From contig CAKOOS010000004.1 of assembly GCA_934098735.1 (NCBI GenBank), positions 6,044-70,043 on the forward strand: a stretch of DNA of 64,000 nucleotides, written 5' to 3'. A model generated the notes under the pieces. It did not search any database. It had not been told where the DNA came from and saw only the letters and a list, made by a program, of their open reading frames with translations. The position numbers and the translations under genes are program-made. This document shows, piece after piece, positions 3,719 through 64,000 of the stretch. The stretch comes from an uncultured Bacilli bacterium (GTDB taxonomy: Bacteria; Bacillota_I; Bacilli_A; RF39; UBA660). Each line of letters begins with the position of its first letter. The stretch's first letter is position 1.

Positions 3719-4984
3719 TTATTCTTTGAAAGTGAACATATAATCTAGTATTGCTACTTCATCTCCAGGTTTAGCTCCCAGTTTTTCTAATTCTTCTTCT
3801 ATTTTCATTCCTTTAAATTTTCTTGCAAAACGCAAAACCCCTTCGTCTTCATTAAATTTAGTCATCTTTAAAAGCGTTTCTATTTCTTTTCCTTTTACAA
3901 CCCAAATATTTCCTTCTTTAGTAATTGTAAATGGTTTGTTATCTTCATATTTATAAAGTTTAAAAGTTTCAGTTTTATAAAGTTCAACTTTAGGAATACT
4001 TTCTAGTAGTTTTTCTAAGTATACCATAAGTTCATCAATACCTTGCATTGTATATGCACTTATTTCAAAAACATCTAAATTTGGATATGCTTTTTTAAAT
4101 AATTTTAAATTTTCTCTGGCAAGAGGAAGATCCATTTTACTTGCAACTACTATCTCTTTTTTATTTTTTAAAATATCATTATAAGATTCTACTTCATTTC
4201 TAATTATCTTGTAATCATTTATTGGATCTCTTCCTTCACTTGCTCCCATGTCAATGACATGAGCTAAAATTCTAGTTCGCATAGCATGTTTTAAAAATTC
4301 ATCGCCTAGTCCAACACCTTCATGAGCGCCTTCTATTAGTCCTGGTAAATCAGCCATAACAAATGATTTATTATTCTTTAATTTTACTACTCCAAGATTT
4401 GGACTTAACGTTGTAAAATGATAAGCTGCTATTTTAGGTTTTGATGCTGATATAACAGAAAGGAGTGTAGACTTTCCAACACTTGGCATACCGATTAGCC
4501 CAACATCTGCTAAGACTTTTAATTCAAGTCTAATTTCTTTTTCTTCTCCTGGTTCACCTTTTTCACTAAATTTTGGAGCTGGCACATCATGGGTCGCAAA
4601 AGATTTATTTCCTTTGCCTCCGCGACCTCCTCTTGCAATAATAAATTTTTCTTTATCATTTATTAAATCTACAATTACTTCATTAGTTAAATTATCATAA
4701 ATTGTGGTTCCTTCTGGTACACTTATAATTATATCTTCAGCATTTTTTCCATATTTATTTGAACCTTTGCCATTTTCTCCTTTTGAACCTTTTATTATTT
4801 TTTTATAGCTTAAGTCAACCAAAGTTTTAAGATTTTTATCAACTTTAAAAATAATACTAGCACCTTTACCACCATTTCCACCATCTGGTCCTCCCATAGG
4901 AACAAATTTTTCACGTCTAAATGAGGTACAACCATCTCCACCTGGTCCAGCTATTAATTTTATAGTTAGTTCATCTACAAACAT
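3719..4984 (-). CDS. obg: GTPase Obg/CgtA
   Basis: Glycine-rich Obg fold (GGDGGNGGKGASIIF), the G1 motif GMPSVGKST and a C-terminal TGS-like OCT domain. Confidence 0.9.
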   Translation of the reverse strand: MFVDELTIKLIAGPGGDGCTSFRREKFVPMGGPDGGNGGKGASIIFKVDKNLKTLVDLSYKKIIKGSKGENGKGSNKYGKNAEDIIISVPEGTTIYDNLTNEVIVDLINDKEKFIIARGGRGGKGNKSFATHDVPAPKFSEKGEPGEEKEIRLELKVLADVGLIGMPSVGKSTLLSVISASKPKIAAYHFTTLSPNLGVVKLKNNKSFVMADLPGLIEGAHEGVGLGDEFLKHAMRTRILAHVIDMGASEGRDPINDYKIIRNEVESYNDILKNKKEIVVASKMDLPLARENLKLFKKAYPNLDVFEISAYTMQGIDELMVYLEKLLESIPKVELYKTETFKLYKYEDNKPFTITKEGNIWVVKGKEIETLLKMTKFNEDEGVLRFARKFKGMKIEEELEKLGAKPGDEVAILDYMFTFKE

Positions 4985-5052
4985 AAAAATCCCTCCTTGT
5001 TTTCTTATATTTTAGCATGGTAAAATATAAAAAACAACTGAAAGTAATTATT

Positions 5053-5086
5053 TGCATTATTTACAACTTATGATATAATTTAGCAA
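5053..5086 (+). promoter_or_regulatory. Sigma-A type promoter for trmB: TTGCAT, a 16-nt spacer, then TGATATAAT (extended -10)
   Basis: Read from the sequence upstream of the trmB start. Confidence 0.35.
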
Positions 5087-5100
5087 GAAAGAAGGACAAT

Positions 5101-5739
5101 ATGGAATATAATGTTATAAAAAATGCTGACAAAATTATTGAAAGAAGCTCTTATTTTATCAAAAACCCTTATAAATATAAAAATAATTGGTCTAGTTTAT
5201 TTAATAATACAAATCCTATATCTTTGGAACTTGGAATGGGTCGTGGAGATTTTATAATAAATATGGCTAAAAAGTATCCAAATACTAATTTTATTGGTTT
5301 GGAACTATATCCATCACAAATGGTAAAGGCAACAGAAAGATTAGAAAAAGAAAAGTTAAATAATATAAAATTAATTAATGCTGATGCTAGAGAACTTGCT
5401 AATATTTTTGGTAAGGAAATAACAACTATATATTTAACATTTTCAGAACCTTGGCCTAAAAAAAGAGATGAAAAAAATAGATTTACTCATGAAAGCTATT
5501 TAAAACTTTATGATCGAATTTTCAAAAAAAATAAACACATTATTTTAAAAACTGATAATAAAGGCCTATTTGCTTACTCTTTAGAAACTTTATCGCAATA
5601 TTGGTATGTTTTTACTCGCGTAAGCTTAGATTTACATCATGATGAAAATCACATTGATAATATTATGACAGATTTTGAAAAACAATATTTTAAAGAAGGT
5701 CGCCCTATTTATTATGTTGATGCTAAATTTGATAATTAA
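5101..5739 (+). CDS. trmB: tRNA (guanine-N7)-methyltransferase
   Basis: SAM-binding motif ELGMGRGDF plus the TrmB family pattern. 212 aa. Confidence 0.85.
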   Translation: MEYNVIKNADKIIERSSYFIKNPYKYKNNWSSLFNNTNPISLELGMGRGDFIINMAKKYPNTNFIGLELYPSQMVKATERLEKEKLNNIKLINADARELANIFGKEITTIYLTFSEPWPKKRDEKNRFTHESYLKLYDRIFKKNKHIILKTDNKGLFAYSLETLSQYWYVFTRVSLDLHHDENHIDNIMTDFEKQYFKEGRPIYYVDAKFDN

Positions 5740-5744
5740 TATTA

Positions 5745-5798
5745 TCTTTTTTTATGCATAAAAAAAGCGTTTACTAAGCTTCGTAAACGCTAACTTTC
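5745..5798. terminator. Bidirectional rho-independent terminator with the palindrome AGCGTTTAC..GTAAACGCT flanked by A and T runs. It overlaps the last codons of rpmA.
   Basis: The hairpin sits between the convergent genes trmB and rpmA. Confidence 0.5.
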
Positions 5799-6058
5799 TT
5801 TCTATCTTTTCCTAATTTTTCATATTTAACCACACCAGTTACTTTAGCAAATAATGTGTGATCTTTTCCCATTCCAACATTTGTTCCTGGATAAATTCTT
5901 GTTCCTCTTTGACGATAAAGAATTGAACCTGCTGTTACAGTTTCACCATCACTAGCTTTAGCACCAAGTCTACGACCAGCTGAATCTCTACCATTTTTTG
6001 TTGAACCTTGAGCTTTAACGTGCGCAAATAATTGGATGTTTAACTTCATGAAATTCAT
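5774..6058 (-). CDS. rpmA: 50S ribosomal protein L27 with an N-terminal propeptide ([12 protein letters not shown]...). The true start is probably the M at 6049.
   Basis: [15 protein letters not shown] core. A Prp-cleavable N-terminal extension is typical of Firmicutes. Confidence 0.9.
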
Positions 6059-6357
6059 AGTTTTTCCTCCTTAATTATTTTAATATTTTTAGGATAAGTA
6101 TCTGCTAATTCTTCTAACATTGCTAGCATATTTTCTATAACTAGCTTAATATTTTCTGAATTTTTTATTATTTCAATTATTAATTTATTATCAAAACAAT
6201 CATATTTTATAGATTCTTTATCCATTCTCAAACATAAATTAATACTAGTAATTACAATTGAAGATGCACTAGCACATACTATGTCCTTGCCATAATCAGC
6301 AAAATTAGCATGACCTTTTATAATTATTTTTTCACTACTAATACTTACTTTAATCAT
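6055..6357 (-). CDS. prp: Ribosomal-processing cysteine protease Prp (YsxB)
   Basis: It lies between rplU and rpmA, with a GHA...DIVCASAS catalytic His/Cys pattern. Confidence 0.75.
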
Positions 6358-59807: not shown

Positions 59808-60724
59808 TTTACTCCTCCTATTATCGAAGGCCTTATTTCATAATCTAAGGTATTTATTTTTATAAATGTTGCTTTACTAAATTTAATAAAGCCATAACCT
59901 TTTATAATTAAATCACTGTTACTTGGCACTGCTACATCACATAACACATTTTCTTTTTCTCTTCTTTTATCAATACTTATAGTATTACTCATATAAATTG
60001 TTAAATTAGAATTGCTTTGAATATTTAATTTTAAATTATTTATTTTTAAATAATATTTATTTTCTAGTTGATATACAATTGGCTTAATTAAATTTTTAGG
60101 TACATTTTCTCTTTTAAAGTGACTCATAAAACCTGGAGCATCATATATAGTTACACCATCTACATTTAGTCTTATAAAATCTTGAGTTGTGTTACTTTTA
60201 TGGCTTACAGTAATATTACTACCAACTAACGAATTAATTAAACTACTTTTTCCTGCATTAGTAAATCCTGCAAATAAAACATTTTTTTCTTCTAAGCAAA
60301 TATTTCTTATTTCATTTAAATTTACCCTATTTTTACTACATATTAAAATATTTTCTTTTATATCATATATGTCTTTTATATTTTCTACTAAAGTATTTAT
60401 TTTAATATTTTTAGGAATTATATCACATTTTGTTAGCACTAAAGTTTTATAATTAGTAATACTTTTATAGGTATCTATTACCTCTTTATCTAAATTCAAA
60501 AAATCCACAATAAATAATACATAAGATTTTTTCTTATTTATTTTTGAAAGAATCTCTTTATTATCTATAACTACACCTTCATTTGTTAAAACATTGTAAT
60601 TTTTTAGTTTAAAACAACGCATGCACAAATCATTTTCTAACTTTGGGGTATATCCTACTTTTTCAGGATCTAGATTTTGAAGGCGTATTCCACATCCTTT
60701 ACATTTAGTCATAATATTCACCAC
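59804..60724 (-). CDS. yqeH: Ribosome biogenesis GTPase YqeH (N-terminal zinc ribbon, circularly permuted GTPase)
   Basis: CKGCGIRLQ...CMRCF followed by the order G4, G1 (GFTNAGKSS), G3. Confidence 0.8.
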   Translation of the reverse strand: MVNIMTKCKGCGIRLQNLDPEKVGYTPKLENDLCMRCFKLKNYNVLTNEGVVIDNKEILSKINKKKSYVLFIVDFLNLDKEVIDTYKSITNYKTLVLTKCDIIPKNIKINTLVENIKDIYDIKENILICSKNRVNLNEIRNICLEEKNVLFAGFTNAGKSSLINSLVGSNITVSHKSNTTQDFIRLNVDGVTIYDAPGFMSHFKRENVPKNLIKPIVYQLENKYYLKINNLKLNIQSNSNLTIYMSNTISIDKRREKENVLCDVAVPSNSDLIIKGYGFIKFSKATFIKINTLDYEIRPSIIGGVK

Positions 60725-61226
60725 TTATCAGAATATTTTTTTTAGCTAATCTTTTTAAAATAAAACTTTCAAAAAAACGATTAAATTTAGTAAATATTAC
60801 TTCATATTTGGCTATTCTATTTACTAAAATGCTAGTGAATCCCATACGATTTGCTCCCAAAACATCGGTCATTAACTGATCTCCAATACAAGCCACTTCA
60901 TCTATTTTAAACCTGTAAATATCAAGAATTTTTTGATATTTTCCTTTTAAGGGCTTTTTACTACTAAAAGCAACATCTACGTTTAACTTTTCTTTAAATG
61001 GTCTTAAACGATTTTTGCCACTATTAGATATAATTATTACTTTAAAATCATCTTCTAATCTAGCAAATAATTCTTTAACTTTAAGATCTGGTTCACTTAC
61101 TTTATAAGGAGCGATGGTATTATCTAAGTCAAAAAGCAAACACTTAATTCCATTTCTTTTTAATTTTTTATAATTAATCGTGTAAATACTTTGAGCATAC
61201 ACATCAGGTATAAATAAATCCAACAT
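60705..61226 (-). CDS. yqeG: YqeG-type HAD-superfamily phosphatase
   Basis: DLDNT motif. Conserved neighbour of yqeH. Confidence 0.7.
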   Translation of the reverse strand: MLDLFIPDVYAQSIYTINYKKLKRNGIKCLLFDLDNTIAPYKVSEPDLKVKELFARLEDDFKVIIISNSGKNRLRPFKEKLNVDVAFSSKKPLKGKYQKILDIYRFKIDEVACIGDQLMTDVLGANRMGFTSILVNRIAKYEVIFTKFNRFFESFILKRLAKKNILISGEYYD

Positions 61227-61395
61227 TTTTAATCACTCCTTTATCCGTTATATTTTATCATAAATTAATTAATTTAATCAATATTTAAAAAAAGAACTAA
61301 CATATAAGGCAAAATAAAAATTTTGAGCAATCCTAAATTATCTAGTTTTCATATGCAGCTTTTTTAGATAAGAATCCTTAATATATTTTTAAAAT

Positions 61396-61459
61396 AAAAA
61401 AATCAATCATTACGATTGTTTTTTCTATATCAAGTTCGAATAGATCCATCAATGGTGCG
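61396..61459. repeat. Direct repeat B, copy 1 (AAAAAAATCAATCATTACGAYTGWTTTTTCTATATCAAGTTCGAATAG...CATCAATGGTGC)
   Basis: About 85% identical to copy 2 at 62996..63068. Copy 1 lacks about 12 nt of the internal palindrome. Confidence 0.6.
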
Positions 61460-61562
61460 ATAGTTAAGATAGTCAGAAACCATCACAACAAATAAATAAA
61501 AAATTTAATTCTATAATCATTACACGATGACTTTAATTAATTTTGATAAATGATTTTTATAA

Positions 61563-61610
61563 AAATGAAAAAGACCTAGGGCTTCAAAAGTTTCCTAGGC
61601 ACATTTCAAT
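61563..61610 (-). terminator. 48-bp hairpin element A, copy 1: CCTAGG-N13-CCTAGG stem-loop followed by a U-rich tract on the minus strand. It is the 3' terminator of the Abi gene.
   Basis: 47 of 48 nt identical to copy 2 at 62537..62584. Confidence 0.55.
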
Positions 61611-61628
61611 ATTATTATATGCTATAAA

Positions 61629-62522
61629 TTAATATTTATACACATAATAATCCTTATCAAACCCCATTACTTTTAATACTTCATCAATAGTAATTGAAGT
61701 TAAATTATCTTTTAATGTATCTAATTCTTTTGCAATTAAATTCTTCATTTCAATTGCTTGATCATTTTCCAATAATAGCTCTAATGATCTAATTATTATA
61801 TACATATTTGTATGTAATGCTTTATTTGGTGATTTTTTAGTTTTATCTAATCTAATATAGAAAGTACTTCTATAAGTATATAATCTATCATCATGAGCTG
61901 ATATATTACGAACTGATGTTAAATTACCAAGTATATTTTTTAATATCCTATCATTTATATGGAATTGTTTACTAATTTCTTGTCTATCTTGTTGTTTCAT
62001 TAAGCCATAAAACTTACTAATAGTTCCAAGAGATAAGATTTTAGTAATAACCCAAGGTGGAACAAATCCATATTTACTCATATAATGGGTTATTGCATCA
62101 TGTTTACCATTTCCTTTATTAATTTCATTTTTAATTTCTTCAATTAATTTTTCTATATGTTCTAAGTTAGAATTATCATCTTTTAAATCAAAATTATTAA
62201 TATTTAAATAATTTTCTAATCCATGCTTTTCAGCAAATAAATTTGCAATTTTAGTTTTTATTACTGCCTCTATTTCAAGTATATATTTAAGCATTATTAT
62301 CTTTAAGCTTTTGTCAAACTTATACATTGCAAATATTTCTTCAAATGAGGCATTATCTTTATACTTTTCTCCTATTTTGAATATCCATTTATAAGAGTTT
62401 ATTATTGAATAGTAAGAATACTTTTCAATTAAATATCTAACACTGTTTTCATCTTTTATTGATACACTTTTTGAATTTAATATTTCTATTAATTCATTTG
62501 TTGATTTAAATACTTTAGCCAT
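61629..62522 (-). CDS. Abi_2 family (AbiD/AbiF-like) abortive infection protein
   Basis: N-terminal MAKVFKSTNELIEILNSKSVSI and internal VPPWVITKILSLGTISKFY match the Abi_2 family pattern. An AAGGAGGT Shine-Dalgarno precedes the start. Confidence 0.65.
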   Translation of the reverse strand: MAKVFKSTNELIEILNSKSVSIKDENSVRYLIEKYSYYSIINSYKWIFKIGEKYKDNASFEEIFAMYKFDKSLKIIMLKYILEIEAVIKTKIANLFAEKHGLENYLNINNFDLKDDNSNLEHIEKLIEEIKNEINKGNGKHDAITHYMSKYGFVPPWVITKILSLGTISKFYGLMKQQDRQEISKQFHINDRILKNILGNLTSVRNISAHDDRLYTYRSTFYIRLDKTKKSPNKALHTNMYIIIRSLELLLENDQAIEMKNLIAKELDTLKDNLTSITIDEVLKVMGFDKDYYVYKY

Positions 62523-62536
62523 TTTTACCTCCTTAT

Positions 62537-62584
62537 AAATGAAAAAGACCTAGGGCTTCAAAAGTTTCCTAGGCACATCTCAAT
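62537..62584 (-). repeat. 48-bp hairpin element A, copy 2. It lies in the 5' leader of the Abi gene, between a putative promoter (TTGCAA, 18-nt spacer, TATATT, at 62589-62618) and the Shine-Dalgarno.
   Basis: Same CCTAGG hairpin plus U tract as copy 1. Confidence 0.55.
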
Positions 62585-62995
62585 TGGTAATATACACTAT
62601 TTATAAATAAATTGCAATACTATTGAATAAATTTCTAATCATAATCTATACTAACTGATATTTTATCTCTCGCAACACATATTCCATCCTTTATAATATA
62701 ACTTCAACTAACTTTTTAATAAATATCGTATGGTTTTGGATTATCTGTTTGTGGATATTTTTTTAAGTATCTCTTATTTCTTAAAAGTTGGGATTGTCCA
62801 TTACTTTCATAATCATCAAATCTTTCAAACACTTCTTATATGAATAACATCTATATCTAATAATTGGTTTTGCTCTACAAAACTCACAAATAAATTCTAA
62901 TTTCTTTCTTAACGATTCTTCCATTCTAACTTTTTACTTGATAACATTTATCATTTTAATCAATCCTTTCTTTGAAAGCCTTTTTTCAAAACAAG

Positions 62996-63068
62996 AAAAA
63001 AATCAATCATTACGACTGATTTTTCTATATCAAAGTTCGAATAGTTCGAACAAATTCATCAATGGTGC
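62996..63068. repeat. Direct repeat B, copy 2, containing the perfect palindrome GTTCGAA-TAG-TTCGAAC
   Basis: See copy 1. The two copies bracket a segment of about 1.6 kb holding the Abi gene and a degraded ORF. Confidence 0.6.
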
Positions 63069-63184
63069 CAGCAAGGAGCAGGTCTAACAACTCCTAGGCT
63101 AAAAGATGATAGTAAGTAATAAACTTACTAACTATATTTATAATACCATAAAATATAAAATAATTAAATTATTTTTAAATACAT

Positions 63185-64000
63185 TTATCTTTTTTTACCA
63201 GTTAAAGTATTACCATTTGTAAATCCAATATTTATTTTAGTCTCATTTGCTAGTCCACTCAAAATTGGGTCACCAGAACTTTCATACTTTGTTAAAATAT
63301 CTGATATCATATCATATTCAATATTTCCATTAAAAGCTTTAAATAAATGATTAAACATATCTTGATAGTTCCAATAAGCATATTTAGGATTAGAAAACTC
63401 TTCAATTTTATATTCTGGATATTTTTTATTAATTATTGTTACAAGTTCTCTTTCCTTATAAACTAAACTAGCAACATTCTTAAATTTTTCTAAATATTTC
63501 TTTTGTAATGTTTCTTGATTATTATAATTAAAGTTTGTTTTTGTTTCTTTTAATTGTGAAAAATCAAGTTTTGATAATGAATTAATAAATTTTTTTTCCA
63601 AATGATAAGTATTATATATATTCATCATTAAATTTGTTATTTGATTTTTACTTAAAGTGTCATTTATCAAGTGTGATTTTAATACACTATACCCTTCATT
63701 TAAAATATAACCAGATAATTCGCATGACATAATATTTTCATCATTACCAGTATTATTTTTGCTTGTCAAATTATTATCAAACATAATTGTAGTTTTAACA
63801 TTTCCACTTTCATCAAATATTTTACTCATCATTGGATAATATTCTATTATTTTTTTAAAATAACTTTTATAATTTTCATTTGTATCAATATTGTATTTTA
63901 TCTCTTTAATATCAGTAGCAAAAAATCTTTCATTAGAATTAAATTTTGTTTGAATTGCACGTCTAGCAAATACTGACTCTTTATTTTGTATGCATTTATG
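63185..64000 (-). CDS. Hypothetical protein. The frame stays open to the window end, so the gene probably extends beyond 64000; the track start at 63832 is only the first in-window ATG.
   Basis: Hand translation shows no stop upstream of MMSKIF in the same frame up to the window edge. Confidence 0.35.
   Translation of the reverse strand, partial: HKCIQNKESVFARRAIQTKFNSNERFFATDIKEIKYNIDTNENYKSYFKKIIEYYPMMSKIFDESGNVKTTIMFDNNLTSKNNTGNDENIMSCELSGYILNEGYSVLKSHLINDTLSKNQITNLMMNIYNTYHLEKKFINSLSKLDFSQLKETKTNFNYNNQETLQKKYLEKFKNVASLVYKERELVTIINKKYPEYKIEEFSNPKYAYWNYQDMFNHLFKAFNGNIEYDMISDILTKYESSGDPILSGLANETKINIGFTNGNTLTGKKR

Follow-up and report, generated by a model that had tools for sequence, protein, structure and literature searches.

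In the genome of an uncultured gut Bacilli bacterium (26% G+C), we investigated a stretch of 64,000 nt (contig CAKOOS010000004.1, positions 6,044 to 70,043; hereafter the window), in which two imperfect direct repeats, termed repeat B, bracket a segment of ~1.6 kb that carries the gene abi for an abortive-infection protein of the Abi_2 family. We found that this B-bounded segment is probably a decayed integrative and mobilizable element (IME), one unit of a tandem array that adjoins the CCA at the 3' end of tRNA-Arg(CCG), with ileS and yqeG on either side. A preliminary description of the window had read the segment as a small mobile or recombination-delimited defence islet. The comparison of strains supported that reading and refined it in three ways: repeat B is att-like, the cassette would be the deletion remnant of a larger IME and not a self-contained unit, and the conserved unit is hairpin-abi-hairpin. 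Coordinates without a locus label are those of the window, all features of the window given below lie on the minus strand, and L numbers are our labels for related contigs and loci.

The anatomy of repeat B was examined in both copies. The extents backed by related loci are 61396-61457 (copy 1, B1) and 62996-63067 (copy 2, B2). Both copies had been correctly placed before, and the identity of ~85% given for them was fair, since they agree at 60 of 63 ungapped positions (95%) and at 81% when indel columns are counted. Either half of B has exactly two occurrences in the 64 kb of the window, while shuffles lead one to expect 0.00-0.01. The perfect palindrome that had been reported in copy 2 is actually an inverted repeat of 7 bp with a 3-nt spacer (GTTCGAA-TAG-TTCGAAC, 63035-63051), and it arises because copy 2 has a 10-bp tandem unit that is missing from copy 1. 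The same 10-bp unit occurs in a paralogous trailer behind tRNA-Arg(TCT); thus, copy 1 is most likely the form from which the unit was deleted. In minus-strand order, B2 consists of CACCA (63067-63063), a trailer, hairpin 1 (GTTCGAA-CUA-UUCGAAC, 63035-63051), a terminator hairpin (~62997-63024) and a T-run. B1, the distal, attR-side junction, consists of CACCA (61457-61453), a tRNA-Arg-type trailer with TTCGAAC at +13 to +19, a terminator hairpin (~61397-61424) and a T-run, directly after which comes the yqeG promoter region. The right B copy of L012 and L016 was a B1/B2 mosaic, so B copies recombine or convert each other.

From human-gut metagenomes (Hadza, Nepal and others), we drew contigs whose Abi or YqeG protein is identical to that of the window. 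In the strains without the cassette, the order was ileS, tRNA-Arg(CCG), a single B and yqeG, the single B being of the B2 type. By the tRNA placement of ARAGORN, the last five bases of the tRNA (CACCA) are the start of B (…GGGACACCA|TTGATGAATTTG…), and the tRNA-Arg(CCG) end …GGGACACCA led directly into B2 in L002, L010, L013 and L113. Therefore, B is the trailer and terminator of the tRNA-Arg(CCG) downstream of ileS; according to the computed fold, it comprises a small hairpin with GTTCGAAC and then an AT-rich intrinsic terminator. A pattern scan of the GTDB species-representative genomes gave one relevant match to B, in a metagenome-assembled genome of an uncultured Bacilli bacterium (L021), located directly behind tRNA-Arg(TCT). 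Rfam yielded no family for B, nor for the inner hairpin H described below, either at gathering thresholds over the whole window or at permissive E-values in 2 kb, in 146 nt, in 12 homologue loci and in L104. Neither terminal inverted repeats nor a transposase were found in the cassette. B is att-like and not like a miniature inverted-repeat transposable element (MITE): an att-associated trailer and terminator stand at each junction, and there is no transposase footprint.

The population was polymorphic at this site. The empty state (tRNA-B2-yqeG), with a YqeG 100% identical, was observed in L007, L008, L010, L111, L112 and L114. The filled state appeared as tRNA-B2-[cassette]-B1-yqeG in L001, L002, L011 and L012, and as [658-aa gene]-B2-[cassette]-B1-yqeG in the window, L003 and L014; the identical Abi protein was present on 13 contigs. 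Two unrelated inserts (L113, L117) begin right after the tRNA CCA with a trailer of their own and end …ACTCGCACCA|B1. The insert of L113 comprises a small gene that we call p91, a serine recombinase, a relaxase fragment, KilA-N, an aminoacyl-tRNA-synthetase-like gene and an acetyltransferase, and that of L117 is a YhcG/DUF1016 island. The same B1 adjoins yqeG whether the cargo is the Abi islet, the element of L113 or the island of L117. The preliminary description had suggested that a single B might mark the empty site of Abi-free strains and that other cargo might lie between B-type junctions, and both situations are found in these contigs. It had also named two observations that would tell against an islet. 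One was the Abi gene at the yqeG site without B, of which there was no case among the related strains retrieved; the other was B as a ubiquitous intergenic element, which does not agree with two copies in 64 kb and a single relevant GTDB match. Att-type repeats, a site-specific junction and empty, filled and other-cargo states at a tRNA or pseudo-tRNA CCA, by which an IME may be recognized, are thus all present.

Between 59.8 and 64 kb of the window, the minus-strand genes are mutL, a gene for a YqeH-like GTPase, yqeG, abi and the 3' part of a larger open reading frame (ORF). The conserved core flank of the hotspot (60705..61281) contains yqeG, which encodes a HAD phosphatase (60705-61226), and its promoter (61252-61281). 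The cassette had been described as lying after the yqeH-yqeG pair, downstream of it; it does adjoin yqeG, but by the direction of transcription it is upstream, as all of these genes are on the minus strand. On its other side is the ileS-tRNA-Arg pair, beyond the end of the window; in L111, which belongs to the same species, a 529-aa serpin gene (4724-6313) stands immediately upstream of ileS.

Abi homologues of 45-94% identity were then gathered with their contexts (80 metagenome loci), and the neighbouring ORFs were clustered. The precision of the junctions was evident at the right end of the cassette. This end is a segment (sp95, 61458..61555) with an outward promoter-like site, ~60 AU-rich nt, a pseudo T-loop GGTTTCTGA and the terminus …CTTAACTATCG before CACCA. 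Its 95 nt were kept at 85-94% behind abi in 19 metagenome loci, and in all 17 of these 19 that were examined, the homology stopped exactly at GCACCA, after …CTTAACTATCGCACCA. Beyond it followed tRNA-type trailers of 11 kinds besides B1; the right end …ATCGCACCA adjoins a different trailer at at least 11 other genomic sites. From its sequence, the segment looks like an attP-derived arm that mimics the 3' end of a tRNA. The sequence before CACCA was also considered as a decayed copy of tRNA-Arg and this was rejected, as it did not align with tRNA-Arg; ~11 nt only (CTATCG-CACCA) resemble the end of tRNA-Thr(GGT). A right-end stem (GTGAT/ATCGC) that had seemed conserved was dropped as well, being broken in natural variants (L033 type) and having a poor folding z-score.

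The left end and the interior of the cassette contain gene remnants. A leader and a 5' fragment of p91 (~32 codons with an in-frame stop) occupy 62858..62995, and over 62858-63008 the window is 90% identical to L034 (its terminator arm, its leader and the 5' end of its p91); L034 itself has an intact p91 of 90 aa behind tRNA-Thr(GGT) and the trailer of this tRNA. Three fragments of a cyclase gene (SMODS + AGS_C) of the type found in cyclic-oligonucleotide-based antiphage signalling systems (CBASS), the last codons and stop included, occupy 62636..62857 and are 82-91% identical by blastn to L030/L038. In L030 and L038, an intact cyclase gene stands immediately upstream of abi (SMODS 4e-41, AGS_C 3e-46, PADLOC Cyclase 1e-157). 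The remnant in the window gave by itself a weak AGS_C match (E 4.6e-4), which is accounted for by the cyclase-gene fragments there. The earlier inventory of the segment, an Abi_2 gene, two hairpins and a degraded ORF, was thus confirmed as one intact gene with debris, and as judged from these alignments the degraded ORF is a p91 fragment together with CBASS-type cyclase fragments.

The families recurring next to abi were a Mob_Pre relaxase (11 loci), a defence reverse transcriptase (7 loci), a large serine recombinase (5 loci), p91 (5 loci) and the cyclase (3 loci), and the usual gene order was p91, recombinase, relaxase, cargo, abi. In 6 of 6 visible left ends, p91 followed a tRNA or pseudo-tRNA CCA and a trailer, the CCA belonging to tRNA-Arg, tRNA-Thr(GGT), tRNA-Thr(CGT) and three pseudo-ends. 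The recombinases of sister elements have Resolvase and Recombinase domains in L113 and Recombinase and Zn_ribbon_recom domains in L084. When real tRNAs and the right ends of elements were aligned on CCA, a T-loop-like GTTYGRW was found ~22-27 nt upstream, and YTCGAAC at +13 to +19 in nearly all trailers (L010, L021, L034, L036, L041, L044, L071, L079, L113 and the window). Such a roughly symmetric arrangement would fit an att site of a serine recombinase that has CACCA at its centre; YTCGAAC, of which the so-called palindrome of copy 2 is two tandem copies, may be a recombinase half-site or a signal for tRNA 3' processing.

Several observations were made on the parts of these elements. The p91 protein (~90 aa; L113 4091-4366, L034 2086-2358, L036 3196-3471, L079 771-1043, L108 3107-3379) has a conserved NGNxR…TNxxYxEPH and no Pfam or PADLOC family; its gene is always the first after the trailer and precedes the serine recombinase, and we consider the protein a candidate for a directionality factor or a regulator. 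Sister elements have, immediately upstream of abi, either the CBASS-type cyclase with two small upstream genes (L038 1124-2389) or a defence reverse transcriptase, DRT UG31/Drt6/Drt4-like (L033 581-2389). Right ends were alike in the window (61458-61555, 63068-63184), L113, L117, L049, L071 and L108, with an outward sigma-70-like promoter (TGGTATAAT in L034/L036), ~60 AU-rich nt and a T-loop-like GTTTCGGA/GTTTGAAA ~22-27 nt before xCCA, followed by the trailer and terminator of the next unit. Such segments could encode a small tRNA-like RNA, or could be only an attP arm of the recombinase. Behind the abi module of L038 (3565-3600), two ATCGCACCA ends stand in tandem, 16 nt apart, which may be the footprint of an excised or deleted neighbour element. 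Next to B2, the window contains a neighbouring module of the array (63068..64000), composed of the 3' 272 codons of the 658-aa protein (63185-64000) and a right-end segment (63068-63184, …GCTGGCACCA). The protein has a HEMTH (HExxH) motif and no Pfam, PHROGs or PADLOC match; the ORF list gives it as 215 aa because the ORF runs off the window. As this neighbour has its own promoter-like segment and pseudo tRNA end, there are at least two tandem modules in the window.

Based on these findings, we hypothesized the following course of events. Intact relatives would have the order (tRNA…CCA), own trailer and terminator, p91, large serine recombinase, Mob_Pre (MOBV) relaxase, cargo such as a CBASS cyclase or a defence reverse transcriptase, and abi, and would terminate in a promoter and a pseudo tRNA 3' end (…CACCA), behind which the resident trailer continues. 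With the serine recombinase as the presumed integrase and a crossover that would fall in CACCA, the family would target the CCA encoded at the end of tRNA genes, with tandem accretion of its members, and an excised circle would join …CTTAACTATCGCACCA to TTGATGAATTTGTTCGAAC…. In the window, internal deletions would have eliminated all that once lay between the beginning of p91 and the cyclase gene's end, leaving both junctions and the abi module. Recombination or conversion between B copies would then produce the single-B empty state and the mosaic copies.

This course resembles that of IMEs of Firmicutes, which are small, have an integrase at one end and a MOBV/Mob_Pre relaxase, integrate at tRNA 3' ends, form tandem arrays and decay to leave cargo between att-type repeats (PMC5357655); in streptococci, tandem accretion and decayed IMEs are documented (PMC5357655). 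There, IMEs aimed at tRNAs have tyrosine integrases, and with serine integrases the target is mostly a protein gene, which is disrupted (PMC5357655), whereas the recombinase linked to the present elements is a serine recombinase. Further differences from those IMEs of Firmicutes are that the junction falls precisely on the encoded CCA, that a replacement trailer and terminator come with the element, and that its far end bears a promoter and a tRNA-like 3' end. Att-flanked elements without recombination genes have a precedent in the cis-mobilizable elements (CIMEs) of Streptococcus thermophilus. Compared with integron cassettes, which have attC and an IntI-type tyrosine integrase, the repeats here derive from tRNA trailers and the linked recombinase is of the serine type. 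In principle, the site does not differ from tRNA-adjacent defence islands or hotspots, with variable, defence-rich and strain-specific cargo between core genes; AbiF, the CBASS cyclase, the defence reverse transcriptase and the YhcG nuclease are cargo of this kind. Among such sites, it is a small and clear case in which descent from an element can be followed.

Several points weigh against a decayed IME. No integrase or recombinase gene was found within 61396-63067, and no relaxase or oriT in the window cassette, the mobility of which is thus only inferred. In no single captured locus were both ends of an element found together with a full-length recombinase, and the serine recombinase of L113 is short (307 aa) and may be defective. 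ARAGORN found no tRNA inside the window; the tRNA lies outside it and was seen only in related contigs, L003 and L014, which are identical to the window end, breaking before it. The contigs with empty sites are metagenome assemblies, in which repeats may collapse; since the final assembly k-mers exceed B in length and empty sites recur across several samples, such an artefact is unlikely. A further difficulty is that the left B2 is identical to the trailer of the empty site, with B1 on the right of all occupied strains, so a model in which the element brings its own trailer needs further recombination or conversion, or an old polymorphism. There are three readings of this arrangement: the empty sites are scars of B2 x B1 deletion; B1 and B2 are old alleles; or the islet spread in the species by homologous recombination, with the left crossover in the terminator arm GATTGATTTTTTT common to L034 and the window. 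Finally, some abi modules have long flanking direct repeats and no pseudo-CCA end, so site-specific integration is not the sole route. The repeat of L056/L052 has 103 nt and starts, at tRNA-Met in L056, exactly after CCA; that of L029 (tRNA-Met) has ~38 nt; and local sequence is repeated over 211 nt in L080 and 67 nt in L092. A second route of insertion is thereby suggested, such as a Campbell-type single homologous crossover of a circle.

Some of these points also speak for the strongest rival explanation, a pure hotspot of homologous recombination, in which double crossovers in the ileS/tRNA and yqeG flanks swap the cargo and B was duplicated once by illegitimate or unequal recombination. 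The absence of an integrase from the cassette, the identity of flanks among strains of differing cargo, the mosaic copies as a product of recombination or conversion inside B, the agreement of the left B2 with the empty-site B and the long repeats without a CCA end at other abi sites would all be expected from it. Nevertheless, it does not explain why the right end stops at …GCACCA before at least 11 different trailers, why elements with p91 and a serine recombinase always start after a tRNA or pseudo-tRNA CCA, or why a p91 5' fragment lies where the left end should be. As a full account, we therefore consider it unlikely; homologous exchange probably spreads the islet within the species and in this respect complements its origin as a decayed IME.

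The gene retained in the cassette, abi (61629..62522), encodes a HEPN protein of 297 aa from the Abi_2/AbiD-F family with the motif R205-N-I-S-A-H210. It matched Abi_2 (PF07751; E 2e-44, 152.6 bits vs. a cut-off of 25.6), PADLOC AbiD (E 3e-55) and PHROG 2158 (E 1e-59). Residues R205, N206 and H210 were invariant across 17 homologues, in agreement with the R-x4-6-H signature of HEPN domains, and the family profile matched PDB 8VZ6 chain A (PbAbiF) with an E value of 4.9e-23 over profile residues 3-281. The product is thus predicted to be an AbiF-family HEPN RNase toxin. A scan of viral contigs found no relatives of Abi, and phage genomes contained only homologues of about 20-31% identity. The part conserved across unrelated contexts, among them znuA/sufC, proS/radC and glycosyltransferase/SIR2 neighbourhoods, is 62624-61553, consisting of a promoter, H, GGAGG, abi and a second H. 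The promoter is of the sigma-70 type (62589..62617; TTGCAA, 17 nt, TATATT) and its position is kept in homologues at unrelated sites; the ribosome-binding site GGAGG (62528..62532) is 5 nt upstream of the abi ATG and likewise kept. An origin of the abi unit by retro-insertion was considered and dropped, as the conserved unit includes its promoter and the nearby reverse transcriptase is of the defence type.

The inner repeats that bracket abi (61560-61610 and 62534-62584; 51 nt, 96% identical) contain the hairpin H. The 5' copy (62544..62582; 62.3 bits with our covariance model R1) lies in the leader, immediately behind the promoter and with a U-run after it, and we regard it as a putative attenuator and putative antitoxin RNA. 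The 3' copy (61570..61608; 61.8 bits with R1) has a 7-bp stem and a conserved loop, AAACUUUUGAAGC, in which there is an inner helix of 3 bp; a U-run follows. This copy can serve as the terminator of abi and is a putative second AbiF-binding RNA. H was present 5' of abi in 79 of the 80 loci and 3' of it in 76, with a conserved 5' flank UGAGNGGU. In the clade of the window, the two copies are near-identical and both have the U-run; in distant homologues, the U-run is on the 5' H and the 3' H is followed by a separate terminator. RNA covariation was evaluated on 65 distinct copies. In the 7-bp stem, 99.2% of cells pair (slid controls, at most 59%), 6 of the 7 outer stem pairs are doubly changed with 83 compensatory cells, a level reached by none of 500 shuffles, and 48 G-U cells fit the abi-sense RNA strand only. 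The loop AAACUUUNGAAGC is essentially invariant. Model R1 detected only the two window copies in 217 kb including phage phiC2. The locus thus has a conserved structured cis noncoding RNA (ncRNA) between promoter and toxin gene, together with a terminator.

H and abi together point to an AbiF system that is similar to type III toxin-antitoxin systems and uses a different RNA. In Clostridioides difficile, a promoter drives RCd22, a terminator upstream of abiF marks the end of this RNA, and RCd22 neutralizes the toxin in cis and in trans (PMC12373285); in the PbAbiF dimer, one AbiFr RNA is bound per monomer (PMC12737573). By analogy with these pairs, we propose that H may serve this branch of AbiF as its cognate RNA, both antitoxin and attenuator. 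The promoter would transcribe the 39-nt H first, and most transcripts would stop at its U-run to give a small RNA; read-through would give an abi mRNA with H at both ends, ending in the second H. On the pattern of PbAbiF-AbiFr and AbiFCd-RCd22, H would bind and neutralize the AbiF dimer (one RNA per monomer), and during phage infection the supply of RNA would be lost and the RNase freed. Two results speak against this role. RF03085 gave no match to H at E <= 10 (scans of 146 nt, 1.1 kb and 2 kb), nor at E <= 1 in 12 homologue loci, while as a positive control it detected both RCd22 motifs in phage phiC2 (37.6 and 19.5 bits); and the thermodynamic z-scores of single H copies were modest (-0.9 and -2.4).

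It is also conceivable that the H repeats act as DNA, as the ends (recombination sites) of a mobile abi mini-cassette, or are two ordinary terminators. Homology among unrelated loci does end near the outer H edges, and both copies of the window clade, with their U-runs, can terminate. Yet an invariant loop and a covarying stem across proteins of 45-94% identity are unlike ordinary terminators, the G-U cells fit only abi-sense RNA, distant 3' copies have no U-run and a separate terminator after them, and the promoter upstream of H belongs to the conserved unit. We therefore regard this explanation as very unlikely.

For the origin of B, two other possibilities were weighed beside a decayed IME. 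Insertion targeted at a terminator, by a transposase, a casposase-like enzyme or replication template switching at hairpins, might have made B as a long target-site duplication, since local terminator-containing sequence is doubled around abi at several independent sites (B, L029, L052/L056, L080). However, repeats of 21-211 nt far exceed the duplications known from transposases, an indel and several substitutions separate the two B copies, which is unexpected after a recent duplication of a single target, the left repeat boundary is a tRNA CCA, and there is no transposase and there are no terminal inverted repeats; hence we consider this highly improbable. That B is a MITE-like or dispersed intergenic repeat flanking Abi by chance can be dismissed: the hairpins in B and the B-like sequence at a second locus, behind tRNA-Arg(TCT) in L021, are what such a repeat would show, but the window has only two B copies in 64 kb, the species representatives of GTDB only one relevant match, every copy begins at a tRNA or pseudo-tRNA CCA, and terminal inverted repeats or short duplications are missing.

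The relationship to known toxin systems was then considered. The H-abi unit is similar to PbAbiF-AbiFr and AbiFCd-RCd22 in its Abi_2/HEPN protein, the R-x4-H motif and the full-length profile similarity to 8VZ6. As in AbiF-ncRNA systems, a single gene has its own promoter, a structured leader RNA of ~37-39 nt is followed by a terminator, a ribosome-binding site and the toxin gene, and there are two RNA hairpins per locus, which fits a dimer with one RNA per monomer. In contrast to those systems, H is not the Rfam abiF motif, the internal loop is on the opposite side of the stem, the H copies bracket the gene 5' and 3' instead of standing in tandem upstream, and the protein shares only ~30% identity with AbiF homologues of phages. 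With ToxIN, CptIN and TenpIN, it shares the succession of promoter, antitoxin RNA, terminator and endoribonuclease toxin, in which the terminator is thought to set the ratio of RNA to toxin. Unlike ToxIN, it has one H upstream and one downstream and no tandem array of RNA repeats; between 62523 and 62995, upstream of abi, no tandem repeat was visible on reading the sequence, a dedicated tandem-repeat search not having been made. The toxins of ToxIN-type systems have the ToxN/AbiQ fold, which is unrelated to HEPN, and this sets them apart from the HEPN fold of the present toxin.

Taken together, the mobile-element part is ordinary, and the RNA motif and the bracketing layout are moderately new. 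The combined proposition is that H represents an undescribed class of RNA partner of a large AbiF branch in gut Bacilli, with a fold topology other than that of the Rfam abiF motif, and that its carrier belongs to an uncharacterized family of serine-recombinase IMEs at the CCA of several tRNAs, with a replacement trailer and terminator and a promoter-driven tRNA-like end that takes over the displaced trailer. We advance it tentatively, judging its chances to be somewhat below even. AbiF-ncRNA pairs are regarded as type III toxin-antitoxin-like ancestors of Cas13-crRNA. If the proposition is true, AbiF proteins, the proposed Cas13 ancestors, exchanged or re-invented their cognate RNA, and RNA repeats lie on either side of the gene in a repeat-'spacer'-repeat geometry. 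The islet would also serve as a case history for the origin of single-gene defence islets, by landing at a tRNA end, accretion, and whittling down to a toxin module with junction repeats, and these repeats would be a practical marker for decayed elements and empty sites in metagenomes. Moreover, a second, structurally different RNA partner of AbiF could reveal ways in which HEPN toxins diversify in their recognition of RNA.

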